This document shows positions 2,272-18,556 of a stretch of DNA of 18,556 nt, in pieces. A program made the translations under genes and the position numbers. The DNA lies in the NCBI GenBank assembly GCA_004431415.1, contig QPMI01000635.1:1-18556 (forward strand), given 5' to 3'. A model generated the notes under the pieces. The model ran no database searches. It worked only from the letters and a program-made list of their open reading frames with translations, and was not told the origin of the DNA. Position 1 is the first letter of the stretch, and each line of letters starts with the position of its first letter. The stretch is from Cyanophora paradoxa CCMP329 (taxonomy: Eukaryota; Plantae; Glaucophyta).

Positions 2272-2451
2272 TGGGGCAGTCAACTCTGCGAACAGCGCTA
2301 AGTGACATTCTGTTGCTGTCTCATTGCTGCCTAGGAGCGCATCTCATCGCCTAGGTGCGCATCTCATCGCGTCGCTGTACCGGGCTTCGGAAAACTCCGA
2401 TCGCACTACAGCAAGACTAAGCACACTCAGAAGAGCTCAAGATGCTTACGG
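2272..2451. promoter_or_regulatory. Putative bidirectional promoter containing a 20-bp tandem repeat
   Basis: A 180-bp gap between divergent ATGs (2271 minus, 2452 plus). CTAGGAGCGCATCTCATCGC (2331-2350) is followed by CTAGGTGCGCATCTCATCGC (2351-2370), 19/20 identical. Confidence 0.5.
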
Positions 2452-5400
2452 ATGGTCGAGATGCTCCACGCCGATGTTTTCAAACTGCGCCGTGTACCCC
2501 CCGGGGGGGGAAGAACCTGGAGCAGCGGTGCGAACCACGCCATGCAGCGGTCAGAGCGACTGCGGTGCGAATGTCAGAAGTGTCAAGGCAAGTTAGTGCG
2601 TCCTGAGGTTTTCAATGCACATCAACTGCTAGCGCACACCGGATTCAGTAGCAGCGATCGGCAAGTCGAGTGCCCTTGCTCGCGCTGCAATGGAAAGCGC
2701 GTCTCGTCTTGGGTGCAAAGGATACATTTGCACCTAGACAAATATGGATCCAGTCTAGTAGAGCAAGCTGCCCGGAGAGCTCCTGTAAGCGATTTCGTTC
2801 CTTTCGTAGCCGAAGTTCTTGACGTACCGATCCCGACAATTTCGGTTCGAGCGGCACTAAGAAGACGACGATTAGCAGCCCCGGCAGCACTTCAAGGCAA
2901 CGAGCGACAAACAGATTCCAATTCGAAGCGCAAACGTGTCAACAATAAAGCCGCTCGTATGCTGCGAAGGCTGGGTAGATATACTGATCGTATTGGTCCT
3001 CAAGAAAACGGCAATGAACCTGGACATGAATCCAATATCGTCGATGGCATCGATGGCGATGATCATGCTCATGAGGCTTTCGACGACCCAGCCGCAGAGG
3101 AAGGCCAAGCGGACGACATACGTGCAGACCCAGCTAGGGCGGATCAAGTGGATTATGGCCTAGAGTCGGATCAGGACGCAGCGCTCGACGGCTCAGATGA
3201 TGAATGCACTACCAACAGGCAGAATTTTTATTCTGAGCCTCTTTTTGAGGGCTGTAAAGTGTCGGTGCGTGCTGGAGCATTCAATACATTGCTTGATATT
3301 GGCTGTATTGGCTTTTTAACTGTTCTCTAGCGCATGGATTACATCACTTTTTGCCTCGCATTGAAGAAACGCTTTACACAAGCACCTGTTGAGATGTTTG
3401 CATCAATCAACGCGGCTGTGTCTCTCATCATTGAGGGCCAACAAACTGCAACGAGGCAGCTCGGGTCTTGGAAGAGAATGATTAGAGAAATCCAAGAATT
3501 CGTAGCGGTAAATAATCAACCACTTTCAATTTTCGTGTTCGAAACGTTAACATTTCCCTGCTCAGCCTTCCATCACTTTCAGGACATGTGGGTATAAAGA
3601 GACAAAGCACAAGGTGGCGATTTGCAAGACAGTCTGGATCGAAGACGGAACTGTTCCTCCAAATACAGTCTGCGAGTGTGGCCATTCAACCTATGCCGAT
3701 GGTGTGGTGGGCTTCTTTTTTGATCCGACCCGGAGTTTTCAGCAGCTACTGAACAGTCCTTCGTATTATCCCGGTTCCAGTGCGCTTGATTTCGATTCTG
3801 TCGGTGCGGCCACGGCTGATTCAAATTTACACAACGGCGTCCAGTTACGGCGTTCGAGCAATACAGATTGGGGGCGATCGTGTTCCAGATTACTATTTGC
3901 GGTCGCAAGAATCCGAAACCCAACATCTCACTGGCGACTTTGTTCAATCAAGACTTTTCTCTTCTCTTCACGAGGAGGGCTGTGTGCGAATTTCGGACGG
4001 TCTTGGAGTTGTGTGCGCATACTCTACAGATTCCGCAGTGACGCACAGCTGGTCATTTCCACACCTACAGCTTATTCTGAAAACTGGACTCTAATGTCGT
4101 GTTTCTAGGTCCCACGGCGGCTCTTTCACCCCTGTGTTTGTGATACCTATGTCTGCGCATCCTAATTGGCGGTGCGTGATCATTATCTCGCTTTCCGCTT
4201 TTTCGCCACTTGTCTCACCCCGTTTCGCTCAGAACAGCAATGCAACGCCTTGTTTTTCTCATGGATGGGAAGCCGAGAAACTTCGATGGAATGTTCCGCG
4301 TATTCCTTACACCGTGGCTTGTTGCCAACCAGCCGCCGCCCCAGGAGTCCCCGCTCCCGAAAGCCAAGGGTTTGCATGCCTTATAATCTGTCTCTTTCTT
4401 TCAATCATTCAATACCGTTGAGCAGAGTGGGGTTTTGCAATCCTCTCACCGGCAAAACTGACAAAGCATATTTCACAATGGCTCTCAATATCGATGACCT
4501 CCCCGGATGCGCAACGGCATTTATGATAAGTTCGCGTAACGCATCCTTGCGCGGCTTTGTATTCCGGGACAGAAACCTAAACTTTCTGCCAGCGTCGCAC
4601 AGTGGCGAGCACGGCCATCCGCTTCGGAAGGTGGATTTCTGGAAGCGCAGAGCAAAACCGCCGGGAAAAACATGTTTCAAGCACACGATCTCCCGCTCAA
4701 ACACTGGATGCGGGAGTTGTGCGTACTGACCAAGGATCATGATAGACCCCCATCTGCCCGAACGGACTACTGCATGGTGCTCGAGCCGACGGACTGAAAC
4801 GTTCCCACTGCAGCTGTTCTGACACCCTTCGGTACAGCGAGCCGACGGACATGCTGTAGAGATCCAACGCCAAAGATGGTTTCGGAAAGAGATTACGCAA
4901 CAGCTTTTGTTCAATTTGTGAAAACGAAAACCTTCGGTAAAACCTTTTAGAATGGATATAATGAACATCCTTCGAACGCGCCGTCCATTGAATTGTCTCT
5001 GACCAGGCGTTCAAGCTTGCCGACTTTAGCGGAATGGCCACACTTTCGGCTCGGCCCCCTATGCGACTTCAGCTGGAGAGCGACTGGGAGTTCCTGCGGC
5101 ATGGCGAGCTGAATTTCGACATGGGTGTTGAACCGTTCAGGGGCGGCATACTGACGAATTCCACCTCGTCAAAAACCGTCTGGCGGATGTCTTCAACTAT
5201 CTTCGCGGCAACGCGAATAATGGTGATAAGCTCAGTCCTACCTCGATTCAGTGTGTCGTTGCATCTTCCAACTTCCATTCGTGGTTGATTTGCAACGTAC
5301 AACACTAACTTAATTACTTTTCGTCAATGCGAAGGTTAAGCATCAACATGGATGTTCTTGTCCTTTACAGGGCGCCAAGCGAAGCGAAATACGCTGCGCA

Positions 5401-7566: not shown

Positions 7567-7818
7567 ATGCAGCCGCAGAGCCTCGGAGGCCCGGGCCTTT
7601 CGGATCCGGTCCTGGTGATAAAGCACACAATCATGATTCTTCTGATCATGAGCCCTTCGAGCTCGTGATCATGAAGCCTCAGGCTCGGTACCAGGGCGAC
7701 TCGGCGAGCTCGACGCATGGCCAGTCATGATCAAAAAGCTCGTGTCTCGTAGCAAGCAACCCTCCGGGCCCAGCCTAGAAGACACACGGCGCTGATGATG
7801 GGAGCTCGAGCCTCGAGA
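7567..7818 (+). repeat. ~250-bp direct repeat, copy 1 (rich in palindromic hexamers)
   Basis: ATGCAGCCGCAGAGCCTCGG...GGGAGCTCGAGCCTCGAGA aligns end to end with 7992-8240, with one substitution and a few 1-bp indels. Confidence 0.95.
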
Positions 7819-7991
7819 AAGCCTCAGGCCTCTTTGAGGCCCAGGGGACATGCGCTGGTCATAGACTCTAGATCTGAGAGCCTCGGAGCTCGAGCTTGTG
7901 ATCATGTGCATCGGATCATGACGCCGCTGAGCCTCATGGGCTCAGGCCTCGGCAGCTCCCTTTGAGGCTCCGGATCCCTGATCATGACTTA

Positions 7992-8240
7992 ATGCAGCCG
8001 CAGAGCCTCGGAGGCCCGGGCCTTTCGGATCCGGTCCTGGTGATAAAGCACACAATCATGATTCTTCTGATCATGAGCCCATCGAGCTCGTGATCATGAA
8101 GCCTCAGGCCTCGGTACCAGGGCGACTCGGCGAGCTCGCGCATGGCAGTCATGATCAAAAGCTCGTGTCTCGTAGCAAGCAACCCTCCGGGCCAGCCTAG
8201 AAGACACACGGCGCTGATGATGGGAGCTCGAGCCTCGAGA
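7992..8240 (+). repeat. ~250-bp direct repeat, copy 2
   Basis: Near-identical to 7567-7818. The 7819-7991 spacer is built from the same short words (GAGCTC, GATCATGA, GAGCCTC). Confidence 0.95.
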
Positions 8241-8338
8241 TCCGCATGATGGGCCGGAGCCACTAGGACGATTAATATTTAATTATGCCTCTGTCCCCTC
8301 ATGATCAGCGAGGACGGCTTATGCACATGATGATCATG

Positions 8339-8365
8339 ACGTGCGTGCATGCGCGTGCACGTGTG
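8339..8365. other. 27-nt perfect purine-pyrimidine alternation (potential Z-DNA)
   Basis: ACGTGCGTGCATGCGCGTGCACGTGTG is strictly RY-alternating. Confidence 0.6.
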
Positions 8366-8438
8366 AATGCCTGCAGGCGCAGTTGCTTCCTCATCAATTC
8401 AAATCTATTACTTCCTAATTCCTCAAAAAGCTACTCTC

Positions 8439-11400
8439 CTAATTCCTAATAAAGCTACATTCTCCCCTACACATAGATGCGATTCGGCTTTTGCAATTGG
8501 GTCGGCGGCACTCGGGGCATTTGCATATTTGCTCTTGGCTGCTGTCGTCGAGGGGTTCCGACTGGAGGCCCGGAGGTCGTGAATTCGAAGAATGTGGGAA
8601 TGTGACTACGTCAAGCACGTACCGAATACTTCCACGTGAGGGGATCACCTGGCTCAATGTCTAACAAAGCATAAACCCAAACGATATCTGTCACCAACCA
8701 TCACTGGTCGAAGCTCGACGTTCGGTTTGCAGCTGTGATTCTGCAGCACTGGCCAGCCCCGGCTGCCATATCCAGCAACCTGCACGCGCAGGCCTGTTCA
8801 AGCAAGTAGGAAGGGTACTTGTAATTGGAAGAAAGAACGGAATAACCAGTGAGAAGATGTTTCAGTCGAACATGCGTTGTGAGCCGCGTAGCTTTCGACC
8901 GGGAACTTGCTCTGGACCTGTTGCATTGTTCCCCAGAAGCTCTCCCAAAACATGCCTGCTCGTATTCTGGGGGCCCACTTCGGGTTCCGGATGCCAACAC
9001 CACAGTCATTCTGCTCGTCGAAAACTTCCACGGAAATACTTGAAGACTGACCCACGATCTTGAAGTTCCGATTTCCGCAATCGGTAGTGCATAAGAGCAG
9101 TTGAAAGGAGTGCACTGGTATTCGGAAACAATGTTGTGGCAAGCAGGAGAATCGCGGCAAAGAAGCAGACGTGACCCCGTGGCCCGAAGCAGACGCAGCA
9201 ATCATGGCTCAGTTGTTCTCTCACTGCCGCGCGGAACAGCGCGGTCAAAAATCGAACAGCGCTAGAACAACGCTCACGAACCGGCTTTTGGAATATGTGG
9301 AAACTGGAAGTTAGAATTGTAAGCTTGATAACCTCATTCATCCGCTTTTTTGCCAGCTCCGATCCATCATGTGAAATTCGGGCTGTTTGGAGGGCGAGTA
9401 TGATAAAGTTTCTGAAACGTGTTCCAGGATGTGCGGAGAGGACTCAATTCTGGAGTTCTGAGCTCGGACTTCCGAGATGTACCTGCAAACGAGCACATGA
9501 AAAGGAAGAATACGAAGCTGAACCCTCCCGAACCTGAGTTCAAGTTCTTTGATGTGCTCTTCAGGGGAAGCCGTGATATCGTGATTGATGAAACGCGCCA
9601 TAAGGTGCAGAGTAAGTTTCTCCTTGAATTCTTCGAGAGAAATCGGATACGTGTACGAAGCCTGCTTCTCGTATTCTTCCTCATGCAGCTGCCCTGTTGG
9701 GTACCACATCTGCAACGTCGGAGGCCTACGGCGCCAGACGCGTCGAGAATGTCGTTCAGACATTCAGACAACTGGAGTAAGAAGTCGCCTGCATGGACTC
9801 GCACTGCGTTAAGCCTTCAGTACCGGTAAATTTCAGCAATGCGAGCAATTGAAATGCCGACCGACAATGTGAACGCGTCCTGAGCAGTTGACGTGGAGCA
9901 GGGAAATAAATCGATTCGACAGACACGGTCCTCAAGTCGTGTTTTCCGGCAACCAGCGGTCACATCTCGCATGCTCGAAAGCATTCACCAGCGATGACAG
10001 CCGAGTTTTGAAAGTAGGTCCAAGAGAATCGTAAAAAACCATTCCGGCCCATCCGAGAACTCAAAAGCACGTGAGCAGTCCTTTGCGATGAAAAAAATAA
10101 GCGAAACGATATTGTTATACGTTAAAAGAAATAGATTACCAGTGGAATGCCTCTTCCAATACGAAGGCGACCCCGGGCGCTGGTTTGCGGTGCCGTTCCA
10201 GAGATGCAATCTTGGAGACATGCTCTCAACGACATTTCCATGGAATTCTAGGGGTCGGATTCAAGTTGACGCATCAACTGTTCGCACCAACAATCTCCAA
10301 ACTGTTTATAATTATGCTCGAAATTAGGCAATGGAAGACTTTGAGATGATCATTACGCACAATTCTGCATGTGGATGTCATTGAAAGGGTCACCCAGCGT
10401 GTGCTCTGGAAGAAAAGCGAAGCCTCCCGTGAATTCCGCAACTCCGGCACGTCAGCAAGCGGACGCTCAAGTCGTTCTGGTTCGAGGCGAAACACGTGAA
10501 ATGCGTCCACGTTGTACGTTGAGTACAATCCTTGAGGGACAGTTCGTGCCGAAGCCTTGCCTGCCTTGAAACTGAATCTGAATTCCCGTCGATCACTTGT
10601 TGGCGCAGCTGAGAATTCCCAGGTAATGAAACGACCAAGAAGTCTGCAGTGATGCACATCGCGTTCCGACCATGGATGATGGGAAAGTATCTTTTGGAAA
10701 AACAGGATGTCAAAACAGCTTTGCTTAGAGTAAAAAAGACAGCAACTTGGACCCACCAGGAAGCCCGAGGCGCACTGAACCGCAAGACGGACGAAGATTG
10801 ATTCGCGAATATCGTGTTCCATCACTTGATCACTAATAACAGCGTGCGTAATTCTGCATTCATCACATTAAACAGAGAAGTAGGTGGAATCCATATGTAA
10901 GAAAAAAGGGAGCTCACCCCAGACTTCCGAAGTCGGCAAGCCCGGCTTCGCCGATAACCAGCTCTGTGCGTTGTGTATACGCCTCGAGCAACGCAATCAC
11001 TTCTGGGAATTCGCTGAACATAACGGATCGGCACTGCTGAAGAAAGGATATCTGAAGTTTTTTGAAGCTTGCGAGAAACATCTGCAAGATTTCGAATCCG
11101 ACGAGTTTCTTCAGACGAAATGGAAGCTGCCTCTCCATGAGAGCAAATATGAGGCTGAGCTGCCTCAGAACGCCACCTGAACCTGCTCCTATGTCCGCAA
11201 TCACAACCTCTGGCGAGTCCAGCTCCAAAGTCGAGTTCCCTTCCGGCAAGACCCCCCGGAAATGAACTCTGCTATCGTTTTGATGTCAACGAGGCCGAGC
11301 TCGCCATAATTCAAAGATCGAGAGAGCGATCCAATGGATGAGGCTTTCATGTTGTCTTGTTTCTTCAGAATGCTGGGCAGACTCTCCTTCCGGATATGAA

Positions 11401-14097
11401 AACGCATATCGTACACCGCTCCAGCTTCATCCGCATAGCGACCATTTGTGACAACCTCAGCCGCGAGTTGCCAGCGCCGTGGAAAGTTGTCACATCGACT
11501 GAATTCAATCATGCCACGGGAGCAAGAAACGACAAGCGGGGCGACTTCGTTTTCTCGCTTCTTGCGCTTCACTGGCTTGTCGCCTTCGAATCACTCAGAA
11601 TTAAAAAAACCAGAAACATTTAAGACGCTCGAACCGACATACGGAGCTGAAGCTAAAGATTGGAGGACTCTCGCTGCAGCCTGACGCCTGCCACCGCTGC
11701 TGGCCGTGGTGCGCGATGCACTAGCAACAGATGCGTCTGAGGAATTGGGATCGTCGTTCGCGCCGTATGGCTTCTGGCTGAAGTCTATTGCTGAGTCGTT
11801 TCCGGCTGAACGCGTTCTTTTAATTCCCTGGCCAGGCTCTGGTCCGAAATCAACGCCTGACACGCGGGGTATCAGTTCAGAGATGGAAACATGAGCCATG
11901 ATTCATGCATATGCTCACCGGGTATATTCTGAGTAAGGTAAGCCCAAATTTGATGCGTGTTCGGAAGTCGACCAGACGGTGTGCGAGCGGAAGGGTCCTT
12001 CGAATTCTTGATAGCGTACCGGTACCACGACACCCTCCAGTTGCTCAACTGTGGATGCGTTTTAGGCCGATCCGTACTGGGCTGCTGCGGTAGGTCGCTG
12101 CGCATGCTCTTCCGGCGCCGTTTGACGGTGACGGGCCGATGTGCAGCTAAAGGGCGTGGGAACTCATGATCATGATCACGATTCTCATGGCAGGTTGGCG
12201 AATTCCGTGCCGGAGAGCTGTTGGAAGAACTGCTTCCGCCTGGAAGCTGCAGCTGCTCTTCCGCCTGGAATAAGCGCTCGCTTTCGGACTCATCGCTCGC
12301 TGACTGTTCACCGTACGAAAAATCGGTCTTGGTACGATCAAGAGACCGCAAGTGAAGTTTACGAAGTTCCTCGGAATCGCCAGGGAGTCTGATCTTCAGA
12401 GCTAGAAGCCAGTCGCTGGCGACCGTCTCGGCATACTTCAATAGGGCACGCGAGCTCGATGTCGAAAGCTTCTTTACCCAATCCAGAAGTTCGGCGGGGT
12501 TTGCCGGATGGCCGACATTCACAGAAGGAAAATTCGCGTTTTCCAGCATATCGAGAACGACATTGGCGGCTTCAGCAGTGATGTCTGATATGACCTGCAA
12601 AGATGATGGGAATGACAACAGGTGTGCAGAGAAGGTTGAAGATTACCTTCCTGTGGAGGGCGTCGTCTGTTTTCACACCGAAGGATGCGAAGAAATCTGT
12701 TGGCAGCTGAGGAGCATCGTCGTCGCCGTCACTCGATGAGCTCGAGCTCGAGGAAGCGTACGGTGCTGCATTCGATTAAAAGCGCGGATGAAGCCCGAGC
12801 ACACGGGCAGATGCAGCTTTTCTTTCGCACATGAGAGCGGTGGAGAGAATGCCCTGTTTCCTCGAGCTGCTGCCCGAACCAAGACTGGCGGCGTCCTCGA
12901 GAACGCGGTGCGACGGAGGGCTGCGAGGATAAGAAGAAGCCCGCACAGTCAAGTTTTAGAATGGCCGCTCACTCTCAGATGGTCAGATTTCACGTGAAGG
13001 ACTTGGGGTCCCAATGCTGCGCGAAGCTCAGATCTAGATTGCTGGAGGACGCTCAAATCGCTGGTTTCTAAGAACGGACGGAGCTCGTGGCACCAACTGG
13101 GCCCGGAGGCAGAAAGGTGTGCGCGCGATCCTGGAGCCGGAGGCGGGGGGAGCCGGATAGCGGGGGGAGCCGGATATAAGAAGCAATAAGAGTAAGAAGT
13201 AAGAGTAAGAAGCTGTAAGCTAAGAAGCTGCGTAGAGAAGAAGCTCATTGAAGGGAAGAAGCTTTTGAAGTAAAAGCTCTAGACACAGCAATTGCAAGCA
13301 GGCAGCCAACCACGTGCACGGACCGAGCTCGTTACGGCACTGCGATGGAAGCTCAGATTTCAAAGCGAGGCTATGGCGTGAGGTTGCCTTGAGTAAGAAA
13401 GGCTTCCCGCTCTGGTTTCTGGTCCTGTACATGTGGCCACGCGTGTGTGAAGGGCGTGCATAGCGTATCCACATGTACATGCACGTACGCGGCCGGTACG
13501 CCGCGCCTGACTGGATTCTTGCAGCCTCCCATTGTTTGAGGACTTCTCGAAACCGCTCGGAGCACCTGGATCATCGGAGCCGGCCCGAGCAGTGCGCTTG
13601 GCGCTTCTTGTAGGTTTCGAGCGGAGCGTCCGGTGGGGCATTCATGTTCCTTTTGGGAAGCCGCAAGACCAGAGCGATCGGCTTCAGAGCTCGCACATGC
13701 GCTTCTGCGAACAAACCTCCTCATTCGAACTCTGGAAGGCGCCCAAGCGCGTTGGAGAGGTCAGAGATGTGGCATGCGCACACGCCGCAATCGCGCTACG
13801 CATGCTAGTTGCGATAGAAGCACGCCGGGAGAGCTGGCCGGCGCGAGAGGCACGGCCGGCGCCGAGAGAGCTGCGGGTGGTTGTGTAGGCAAGCTCTGTT
13901 CTTGTGTACGGACCTGTTTTGCTCTTAGCATTTGTTCTACCGTCTTGACGACGTCGACCGGCAGACGAACTCTGTACCCCCCTTGCGCGCCGTGCCTCGG
14001 CCGTGCCACCGTAGCGCGCAGCGGCTGCCTTTGGCGGCGCGATGAACAGCTTCAGAGAGCCTTTCTTTGACTCTGACTGCTGAGTCGTCACTGGCAT
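8439..14097 (-). CDS. Multidomain chromatin modifier: low-complexity N-terminus + DOT1-like methyltransferase + Ulp1/C48-like peptidase + AWS-SET-postSET methyltransferase
   Basis: ATG at 14097 (accATG; MPVTTQQSESKK...) and stop TAG at 8439-8441. A continuous chain of exons and short introns runs between them (e.g. 13131-13323, 10081-10139, 8562-8622), with no intergenic-sized gap between domains. The DOT1 C-terminus and the peptidase N-terminus lie in the same exon. The N-terminal exons and the single-gene status depend on indel correction. Confidence 0.72.
8480..9205 (-). other. AWS-like Cys cluster + SET + post-SET domain (architecture like the Set2/NSD/ASH1 family)
   Basis: DCCVC..CRDSPACHNIVSEYQCTPFNCSY..DCGNRNFK resembles AWS CxC..CxN..EC..C..CxNxxF. 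EVFDEQNDCGVGIR..IRAGMF supplies the GxG motif. LQNHSCKPNVE has NHSC at 8740-8729. GDRYRLG(fs)YALLDIEPGDPLTWKY resembles RI.FFA.RDI..GEELTYDY. CKCPECRRPNCKSRI is post-SET-like (8524-8480). Confidence 0.9.
9580..10400 (-). other. Ulp1/SENP-like (peptidase C48) domain
   Basis: Motifs occur in order. PFNDIHMQN|FWRLL resembles WLNDxIINFYMxLL (~10385). VAFVLEEAFHW|TAHVL has His at 10144-10142, with Trp split by intron 10081-10139. FYDSLG lies at 10033-10019. PAPRQ precedes C(G)VHAGDF (Cys 9803-9801, needs a +1 correction). LEEFKEKLTLHLM gives a terminal helix. Several frameshifts are needed. Confidence 0.62.
10490..11320 (-). other. DOT1-like class I SAM-dependent methyltransferase domain
   Basis: SLNYGEL (YGE at 11308-11300) precedes a frameshift at the C6 run 11252-11257. 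VIADIGAGSGGVLRQLS is motif I and resembles FVDLGSGVGQVVLQVA. LVGFEI is post-I. Then TELVIGE, G|ITHAVISDQVM, CASGFL|ILSHHPW (resembles GxRIVSSKPF) and STYNVDAFHVFRL (final strand). Confidence 0.82.
13143..13290. repeat. Intronic tandem/low-complexity repeats
   Basis: GCGGGGGGAGCCGGATA x2 (13143-13176, perfect 17-mer) followed by degenerate TAAGAAG/GAAGCT units, inside the predicted 193-nt minus-strand intron 13131-13323. Confidence 0.8.
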
Positions 14098-18213: not shown

Positions 18214-18402
18214 ATGGTAAACTTAGGGTGTGGTAAAGTTGTGCTGTTTTGCGTTACACCACTGTAAAGTCACCAGGGTAAAGTCGCCGGGGTAAAGTCA
18301 GGGTGGTAAAGTTGTGAAAAGCGGGGTAAAGACGTCGGTGTAAACTCGCCGAGGTAAAGTTGGCGAGGTAAAGACGTCGGGGTAAACTCGCCGAGGTAAT
18401 GT
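18202..18402. repeat. Subterminal-type repeat array, core (G/T)GTAAA(G/C)T, led by a 24-bp perfect palindrome
   Basis: Palindrome TAAGTTTACCATATGGTAAACTTA (18202-18225). Direct copies at 18216, 18232, 18263, 18277, 18291, 18305, 18325, 18339, 18353, 18367, 18381 and 18395, mostly with a 14-bp period. A 42-bp higher-order duplication pairs 18325-18366 with 18367-18408. Confidence 0.92.
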
Positions 18403-18556
18403 TGGTTTCGGTGCAGCGGTTCACTTTTTTACGTTTTTTTTGCTTTTTTTATTTTTTCTGTAAAAGCTATCTATAGCAGCCCATCTTCAAGCGATACTGC
18501 GCGCGAGCTCTATCCTAGAGCTAGCTAATCGGTTTTGATGAATGCTTCGTATTCCT

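Follow-up and report, generated by a model that had tools for sequence, protein, structure and literature searches.

Can a single gene encode two methyltransferases and a SUMO protease? The question is raised by a locus on an 18,556-nucleotide (nt) stretch of contig QPMI01000635.1, hereafter the window, from the glaucophyte Cyanophora paradoxa CCMP329, in which the initial annotation had recognized DOT1-like, Ulp1-like and AWS-SET-postSET domains fused in one polypeptide. Such a fusion is not readable from the window itself, but after correction of the assembly the three motif groups come together in one predicted coding unit, which we consider quite likely to be a single gene.

The motifs on which the proposal was founded are placed in the window as follows.

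Within 11261-11311, minus strand: YGE (window sequence)
11195-11175, minus strand: DIGAGSG (motif search of the window)
10033-10019, minus strand: YDSLG (motif search of the window)
8740-8720, minus strand: NHSCKPN (motif search of the window)
8640-8626, minus strand: LTWKY (motif search of the window)

The signatures of the three enzymes are therefore present and in the order claimed, but they lie on the minus strand and are spread over three frames. In the window as assembled, the longest stop-free stretch on either strand of 8000-13000 spans at most 256 codons, and the frame shifts even within domain cores, between YGE and DIGAGSG and between NHSCKPN and LTWKY, over distances too tight for an intron. 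The uncorrected window encodes no single polypeptide across the three motif groups, and the description of one polypeptide with no intergenic gap had overlooked 10 predicted introns and ~36 assembly errors.

These errors were identified by comparison with public short-read data. The stretch was found in 20 public runs from one organism and at least 16 studies, each carrying 0.78 of the 31-letter words sampled from it, a share in line with our calculation that 36 breaks in 4.5 kilobases (kb) would destroy about one quarter of the 31-mers. Contigs from four runs of different samples (X3, X5, X6 and X12) span 8300-12800 in one piece and, over this interval, differ from the window by no substitutions and 36 gap letters, identically in all four. 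A repeat comparison on 9946-11900 with two runs gave the same result, with 17 gap letters. In contig coordinates, the differences over 8300-12800 comprise 33 bases missing from the window and three extra ones, all of them single-base. Twenty-four of the 36 differing letters were listed by site, as given below, and the other 12 fall within 9183-9945 (six), 10596-11900 (five) and 11901-12800 (one).

After 8487, 8672, 8678, 8756, 8849, 8925, 8946, 9089 and 9182: bases missing from the window, SET end (short-read contigs)
After 9965, 9984, 10019, 10043, 10057, 10219, 10261, 10280, 10298, 10437, 10547 and 10595: bases missing from the window, upstream part (short-read contigs)
At 9415, 9942 and 12611: extra bases in the window (short-read contigs)

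A homopolymer, i.e. a same-letter run, is lengthened by 20 of the 21 listed insertions, and the indel error rate in the checked stretch amounts to ~0.8% (36 in 4.5 kb), nearly all of it from bases lost in homopolymers. Assembly error accounts for the frame breaks in the window, which bear the signature of an unpolished long-read assembly. A decayed gene is not at issue, since decay would have brought substitutions too. The initial annotation had already suspected that polishing was needed, which is borne out by these single-base indels. The rest of the window is equally fragmented into short open reading frames (ORFs). Probably the assembly as a whole is long-read sequence that has not been polished. 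Until this is done, readings based on ORFs cannot be relied upon, either here or, probably, in its other windows.

A gene model was then built by coordinates on the read-corrected strand, using the 24 listed corrections, five inferred bases and 10 short GT..AG introns. Manual reading was used for this purpose. Automatic exon-chaining, with a codon score trained on ~450 codons, was dropped because it skipped known motifs, as was a path of minimal frame switches because many frame changes proved to be introns. The resulting model has the following components.

12771-8467, minus strand: predicted gene with 11 exons, a coding sequence of 3,732 nt and 1,243 codons, no internal stops, and four X residues for the five inferred bases
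12771-12647, 12594-11919, 11856-11639, 11575-10918, 10853-10361 and 10301-10140, minus strand: predicted exons 1-6 (gene model)
10080-9762, 9709-9483, 9411-8872, 8817-8623 and 8561-8467, minus strand: predicted exons 7-11 (gene model)

The 10 predicted introns, all GT..AG, measure 51-70 nt, and the corrected model contains long exons of 676, 659, 544 and 497 nt. Within 9946-10595, where every indel is listed, the leftover frame changes coincide with short GT..AG introns, whose splicing puts the His box of the Ulp1-like part straight onto the strand leading to YDSLG. The interval 10596-11900 is bridged by three introns (GTGAGC..CAG twice and GTCGGT..AAG) and two inferred single bases, in a G6 run near 11253 and a T5 run near 10698, respectively, and its corrected reading proceeds continuously from the N-terminal region through the methyltransferase motifs to the Ulp1-like part. 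Predicted exon 10853-10361 contains a C-terminal methyltransferase part as well as an N-terminal Ulp1-like part. Seven of the 10 introns have G at donor position +5 (background 0.25), the G+C content is 0.445 in introns and 0.522 in exons, and the second codon position has the lowest G+C content in eight of the 11 exons. The start codon and the first exon of the model are putative. The predicted gene overruns the right edge of the region initially annotated (to ~12771), and its stop codon, 8469-8467, is found near the start of that region.

The C-terminal part of the predicted protein is the best characterized and is composed of three segments.

9060-9200, minus strand: AWS cysteine cluster, ~residues 1036-1082, interrupted until the read-supported insertions at 9182 and 9089 are made
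8623-9040, minus strand: SET domain, ~residues 1088-1212, with G-x-G, NHSCKPN and the Tyr of LTWKY, and with intron 8871-8818 inside
8467-8561, minus strand: last exon with the post-SET Cys cluster, C-x-C-x2-C-x4-C at ~8525-8493, and stop codon 8469-8467

The AWS and post-SET clusters, whose patterns were judged by eye against the known consensus, read through after the corrections at 9182, 9089 and 8487 and removal of intron 8622-8562 (GTACGT..CAG), which precedes the last exon. Among the catalytic and cofactor-binding motifs, NHSCKPN and LTWKY are present in the raw window, and G-x-G and overall continuity are obtained after read-supported corrections. Chance alignment is not a serious concern, because the AWS, SET and post-SET clusters fall into line only after corrections made without reference to them. 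In Pfam, the SET family matched a 47-residue piece (8654-8797) partially, at 15.9 bits (expectation value, E, 0.018), and the read-through frame at 13.9 bits, against a cut-off of 22.4. Sequence matches in the PDB (E <= 10) were in 13 of 13 cases to histone H3 lysine 36 (H3K36) enzymes, namely ASH1L (eight), NSD3 (two), NSD2 (one) and other H3K36 methyltransferases (two), the best at E 0.014 over only 25 residues. These matches, together with the AWS and post-SET clusters, support assignment of this part to the AWS-SET-postSET enzymes of the SET2/NSD/ASH1 class, and on this point the initial annotation stands.

With ASH1L, NSD1-3 and SET2-type enzymes, the candidate shares an AWS Cys cluster directly before SET, the G-x-G and NHSC-x-PN motifs, the catalytic Tyr in L-T-x-x-Y, and the post-SET Cys cluster. 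It differs from them in that no PHD, PWWP, bromo or SRI reader modules were recognized, the SET-I insert is unusual, the Pfam score is below the cut-off, and the SET part is fused behind two other enzyme-like domains. By its likeness to ASH1L and NSD, the most likely substrate would be H3K36. In some fungi, H3K36 methylation of the ASH1 type is found on genes with low transcription, so that the term "active marks" is not to be assumed for the product.

Upstream of the SET part lies the putative protease, together with a stretch that bears on its active site.

9800-10560, minus strand: Ulp1/C48-like peptidase region, ~residues 660-880, split by introns 10360-10302 and 10139-10081
9710-9990, minus strand: ambiguous stretch with the candidate catalytic Gln and Cys, the Cys codon being ~9866-9864 in one reading

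The motifs follow a C48-like order, with an N-terminal helix motif containing ND, an HW His box, YDSLG and then P-x-x-x-Q...C. Nineteen residues separate the HW box from the Asp of YDSLG, in a segment where the reads list every indel, and the candidate Cys follows this Asp after 56 residues; we take both spacings to resemble those of Ulp1. Motif order and spacing make membership of the Ulp1/C48 family likely. Several results weigh against it. The C48 pieces gave no Pfam or PDB match, with in-frame window-exact queries of only 25-36 residues. The stretch 9710-9990 allows three alternative readings, one with Ser instead of Cys, and at least two, possibly five, of the six unlisted missing bases of 9183-9945 fall within it; its composition is not coding-like in the assigned frame. 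Support for the Ulp1-like claim comes from motif order and spacing, with the candidate Cys lying in the ambiguous stretch. Compared with Ulp1/SENP (C48) proteases, the candidate has in common the ND helix motif, the HW box, the Asp within Y-D-S-L, and candidate Gln and Cys residues, in the same order and at similar spacing, whereas the Gly that follows the catalytic Cys in those proteases is missing or in doubt here.

The third module is located as follows.

10745-11320, minus strand: class-I S-adenosylmethionine (SAM) methyltransferase-like domain, ~residues 425-596, with intron 10917-10854 and one missing base at the G6 run near 11253

Its motifs run in the order YGE, DIGAGSG, GFEI, ..DF.. 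and a strand ending in S-D-Q. Motif I, D-I-G-A-G-S-G, comes after a hydrophobic strand, the next strand is closed by an acidic residue, and YGE is found 37 residues upstream of DIGAGSG. In a language-model atlas, the ten best named neighbours were all SAM methyltransferases, including Rsm22, Methyltransf_25/31 and cap N7 methyltransferases, at scores of 0.84-0.86, which are below 0.9 and provide a lead only; DOT1 was not among them. A single-sequence AlphaFold model of the 112-residue core had a mean predicted local distance difference test score of 50.2, too poor for fold comparison. We describe the module as a putative class-I SAM methyltransferase of uncertain family with DOT1-like motif order, and do not file it as DOT1.

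The alternative, close to what the initial annotation had put forward, is that this Rossmann module is a true DOT1-family H3K79 methyltransferase, in which case a single polypeptide would methylate both H3K79 and H3K36 and also strip SUMO, combining these anti-silencing activities in one enzyme. The DOT1 motif set consists of YGE, D-L/I-G-x-G-x-G, G-x-E, G-D-F and V-N-N-F, and the module follows its order, with YGE upstream of D-x-G-x-G-x-G, G-x-E after the next strand, the DF pair, and a hydrophobic strand ending in a polar pair. To our knowledge, other class-I methyltransferases seldom have YGE immediately before motif I, and the link to a SET enzyme in the same predicted protein points in the same direction. 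At motif IV, however, Asp-Gln stands where DOT1 has Asn-Asn, and the loops and motif spacings are longer than those of DOT1L. Pfam returned neither DOT1 (PF08123) nor any other methyltransferase at E <= 10 for 10917-11252 (112 residues), 11261-11575 (105 residues) or 10697-10852 (52 residues), a test in which the domain was given in three separate pieces and HMMER filters drop most matches above E ~0.1. A separate Pfam search gave no DOT1 match at E <= 0.01, and no family was found for the methyltransferase in NCBIfam. The lack of any match of the methyltransferase pieces to PDB sequences, which include DOT1L and yeast Dot1, counts against the class-I reading as well as against DOT1. Taken with the generic class-I neighbours in the atlas, these results do not uphold the DOT1 assignment, which we regard as rather unlikely. 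As a methyltransferase without a recognizable family, the module may have a new substrate.

The remaining part of the predicted protein precedes these three modules.

11919-12771, minus strand, running on through exons 2-3 to ~residue 420: N-terminal low-complexity region, Ser/Asp-rich

Two basic clusters in this region, at ~residues 199-205 and 342-348, look like nuclear localization signals and would be consistent with a nuclear protein. The region belongs to no Pfam family, and its N-terminal 245 residues had no relative among proteins of 430-2000 residues. Relatives of the methyltransferase core and of the transposase-like piece described below were likewise absent from metagenome and viral contigs. 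A match designated P0001 (E 5.6e-4 over 31 residues; query 10825-11271, minus strand, out of frame in the final model) was taken as noise.

On the far side of the predicted stop codon, two further features bear on whether the gene belongs to a mobile element.

2335-3327, plus strand: stop-free piece of 331 codons with a Transposase-associated domain (PF13963; Pfam), on the opposite strand to the predicted gene and converging on it
7567-8240 (7567-7818 and 7992-8240), plus strand: two copies of a ~425-nt direct repeat (98-100% alike), a short way past the stop codon of the predicted gene

The stop-free piece also contains two C-x-C..C clusters and may extend to ~7300. We read it as the probable N-terminus of a transposase of CACTA-, Plavaka- or KDZ-like type, the rest of which has been disrupted by indels. 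The Pfam search of read-through frames returned no catalytic transposase domain, as would follow if indels disrupt that part. This transposase-like gene is 1.2 kb from the predicted gene and convergent with it, and the 425-nt repeat sits between the two 3' ends. The short-read contigs begin inside the repeat, at ~8211, are ~10.98 kb long in all four runs, and extend ~560 nt past the right end of the window. Their word depth was 142, 341, 1070 and 902 in the four runs, compared with 11, 19, 56 and 54 for a comparison contig, i.e. ratios of 12.7, 18.0, 19.2 and 16.8 per sample (13-19x overall). Such depth suggests a multi-copy element, and the variation of the ratio is as would be expected if copy number differed between strains. 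A search of Rfam found no family, and ribosomal DNA or a plasmid as the source of the high depth was dropped on the grounds that there was no Rfam match. Signatures of repeat-induced point mutation and CpG depletion were absent.

Because the gene converges on a transposase-like gene and the contig is at 13-19x depth, we regard it as probably the cargo of a large multi-copy DNA transposon. It might instead be an ordinary single-copy host chromatin gene beside a transposon remnant, the fusion being real and not mobile cargo. Several points tell against the cargo interpretation and would suit a host gene. The PF13963 match, at 23.5 bits (E 6.4e-5), is below the Pfam cut-off of 27.7, and in the read-through frame it reaches E 0.0021. 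The window contains no inverted repeats >= 25 nt and no terminal inverted repeats, and the left end of the contig is explained by the local 425-nt repeat instead of an element boundary. Furthermore, the depth comparison was made with one unrelated 2.2-kb contig and not with a proper single-copy control, so that high depth could be genome-wide. In favour of mobile cargo, the element ends may lie outside the window, given that the short-read contig runs on past its right end; the depth ratio differs between samples; the lack of homologues of the N-terminal part would be unusual for a conserved host chromatin gene; and the transposase-like gene converges nearby. On this evidence, a host gene is unlikely. 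Near the right end of the window, 18259-18404 comprises tandem 14-nt repeats (42-nt consensus unit, ~6 copies), which recall the subterminal repeat arrays of CACTA-type elements.

A further possibility concerns the gene model itself, namely that neighbouring genes, two or three in number, or one gene that is disrupted in the genome itself as well, have been wrongly joined through forced introns and inferred bases. The observations that would favour this, and that weigh against a single gene, are as follows. The introns were picked to bridge frame breaks, and intron 7 (GTCTGA) has a poor donor. Acceptor position -3 is C in seven of 10 introns versus a background of 0.40, which is marginal (p = 0.055). 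Five of the 12 unlisted letters were placed by inference and seven read-supported ones are unplaced (three in 10596-11900 and four in 9183-9945); these must fall in introns or cancel, as otherwise the frame breaks. The reading of 9990-9710 is ambiguous, and none of the 20 listed runs in which the stretch occurs is an RNA run. Almost no matches were obtained in Pfam with single stop-to-stop pieces and read-through frames, no profile search with these fragment queries passed the curated threshold for any of the three domains, and conservation of the fusion cannot be shown from the collections searched, which yielded no relatives. Separate or broken genes are nonetheless difficult to reconcile with 1,243 codons without an in-frame stop, exons as long as those listed above, and a methyltransferase-to-C48 junction inside one exon. 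In addition, G is over-represented at donor position +5, the introns have a higher A+T content than the exons, and the sequence is identical, with no substitutions, in four samples, which argues against a decaying pseudogene. The predicted introns do contain T7 and T6 runs as possible sites for the unplaced letters. Overall, we judge separate or broken genes to be very unlikely.

That the window copy is a truly frameshifted dead paralogue, with the short-read contig representing other, intact copies, is barely credible: a multi-copy element would collapse in a short-read contig and could hide one degenerate copy, but natural decay would give at least as many substitutions as indels, whereas the differences show the error signature described above, with none of the former, 36 of the latter, 33 of them missing bases, and 20 of the 21 listed insertions at homopolymers.

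On balance, we favour as an overall explanation one 11-exon gene with a three-domain product that serves as transposon cargo. The three domains would be made as one nuclear protein of ~1,243 residues, in which the SET module would methylate lysine, most likely H3K36, the C48 module, provided that its Cys is intact, would cleave off SUMO or a similar modifier, and the Rossmann module would methylate a second substrate. The protein might then act on chromatin at or around the element's own copies to oppose silencing. The substrates initially proposed (H3K79, H3K36 and SUMO), the anti-silencing role and the direction of any effect on silencing are conjectural. If the model holds, a mobile element has combined three chromatin-directed catalytic modules in one protein, which would provide a compact natural experiment in the contest between element and silencing, as well as new domain pairings for chromatin biochemistry. 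The boldest version envisages a large, active DNA transposon with a single gene for DOT1-type and SET2/ASH1-type methyltransferases and a SUMO protease, which rewrites the chromatin of its own copies and escapes heterochromatic silencing. We consider it decidedly doubtful; were it true, it would represent the first protein in which two unrelated folds of lysine methyltransferase are joined, and no known anti-silencing factor encoded by a transposon would be more elaborate.

There are precedents for individual parts of this arrangement. Mutator-like elements (Kaonashi/KIU) have acquired Ulp1 domains, which also occur fused with VANC, an anti-silencing factor (PMC13317346); HarbingerS and MuDR elements of Phytophthora have taken up SET genes, and in fungi TET/JBP genes travel with KDZ, Plavaka and EnSpm elements (PMC12730594); and DOT1 subfamilies with new domain partners occur in brown algae (PMC13076208). 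The likeness of our locus to the transposon-captured modifiers (Ulp1 with VANC in plant Kaonashi/VANDAL elements, SET in the oomycete Phytophthora and fungal TET/JBP) consists in a chromatin-modifier gene beside a transposase-like gene, probably in a multi-copy element. Transposon-captured Ulp1 and SET are known there separately, whereas here SET and Ulp1-like parts occur in one predicted protein with a third module, a methyltransferase. In the part of the literature that was accessible, no description was found of a protein that unites SET with Ulp1, nor of one in which SET or Ulp1 is coupled to a second methyltransferase. The predicted fusion probably extends the known transposon-borne chromatin modifiers with a new combination.

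Finally, two minor observations concern the 5' end of the predicted gene. At 12737-12770, a stretch of 34 nt is matched, with three mismatches, by another contig, which has low depth and measures 1.6-2.2 kb, in each of the four runs; this may reflect a related low-complexity stretch elsewhere in the genome. The other is a set of GC-rich tandem repeats with units of 17 and 13 nt at 13133-13230, some 400 nt before the putative start codon.

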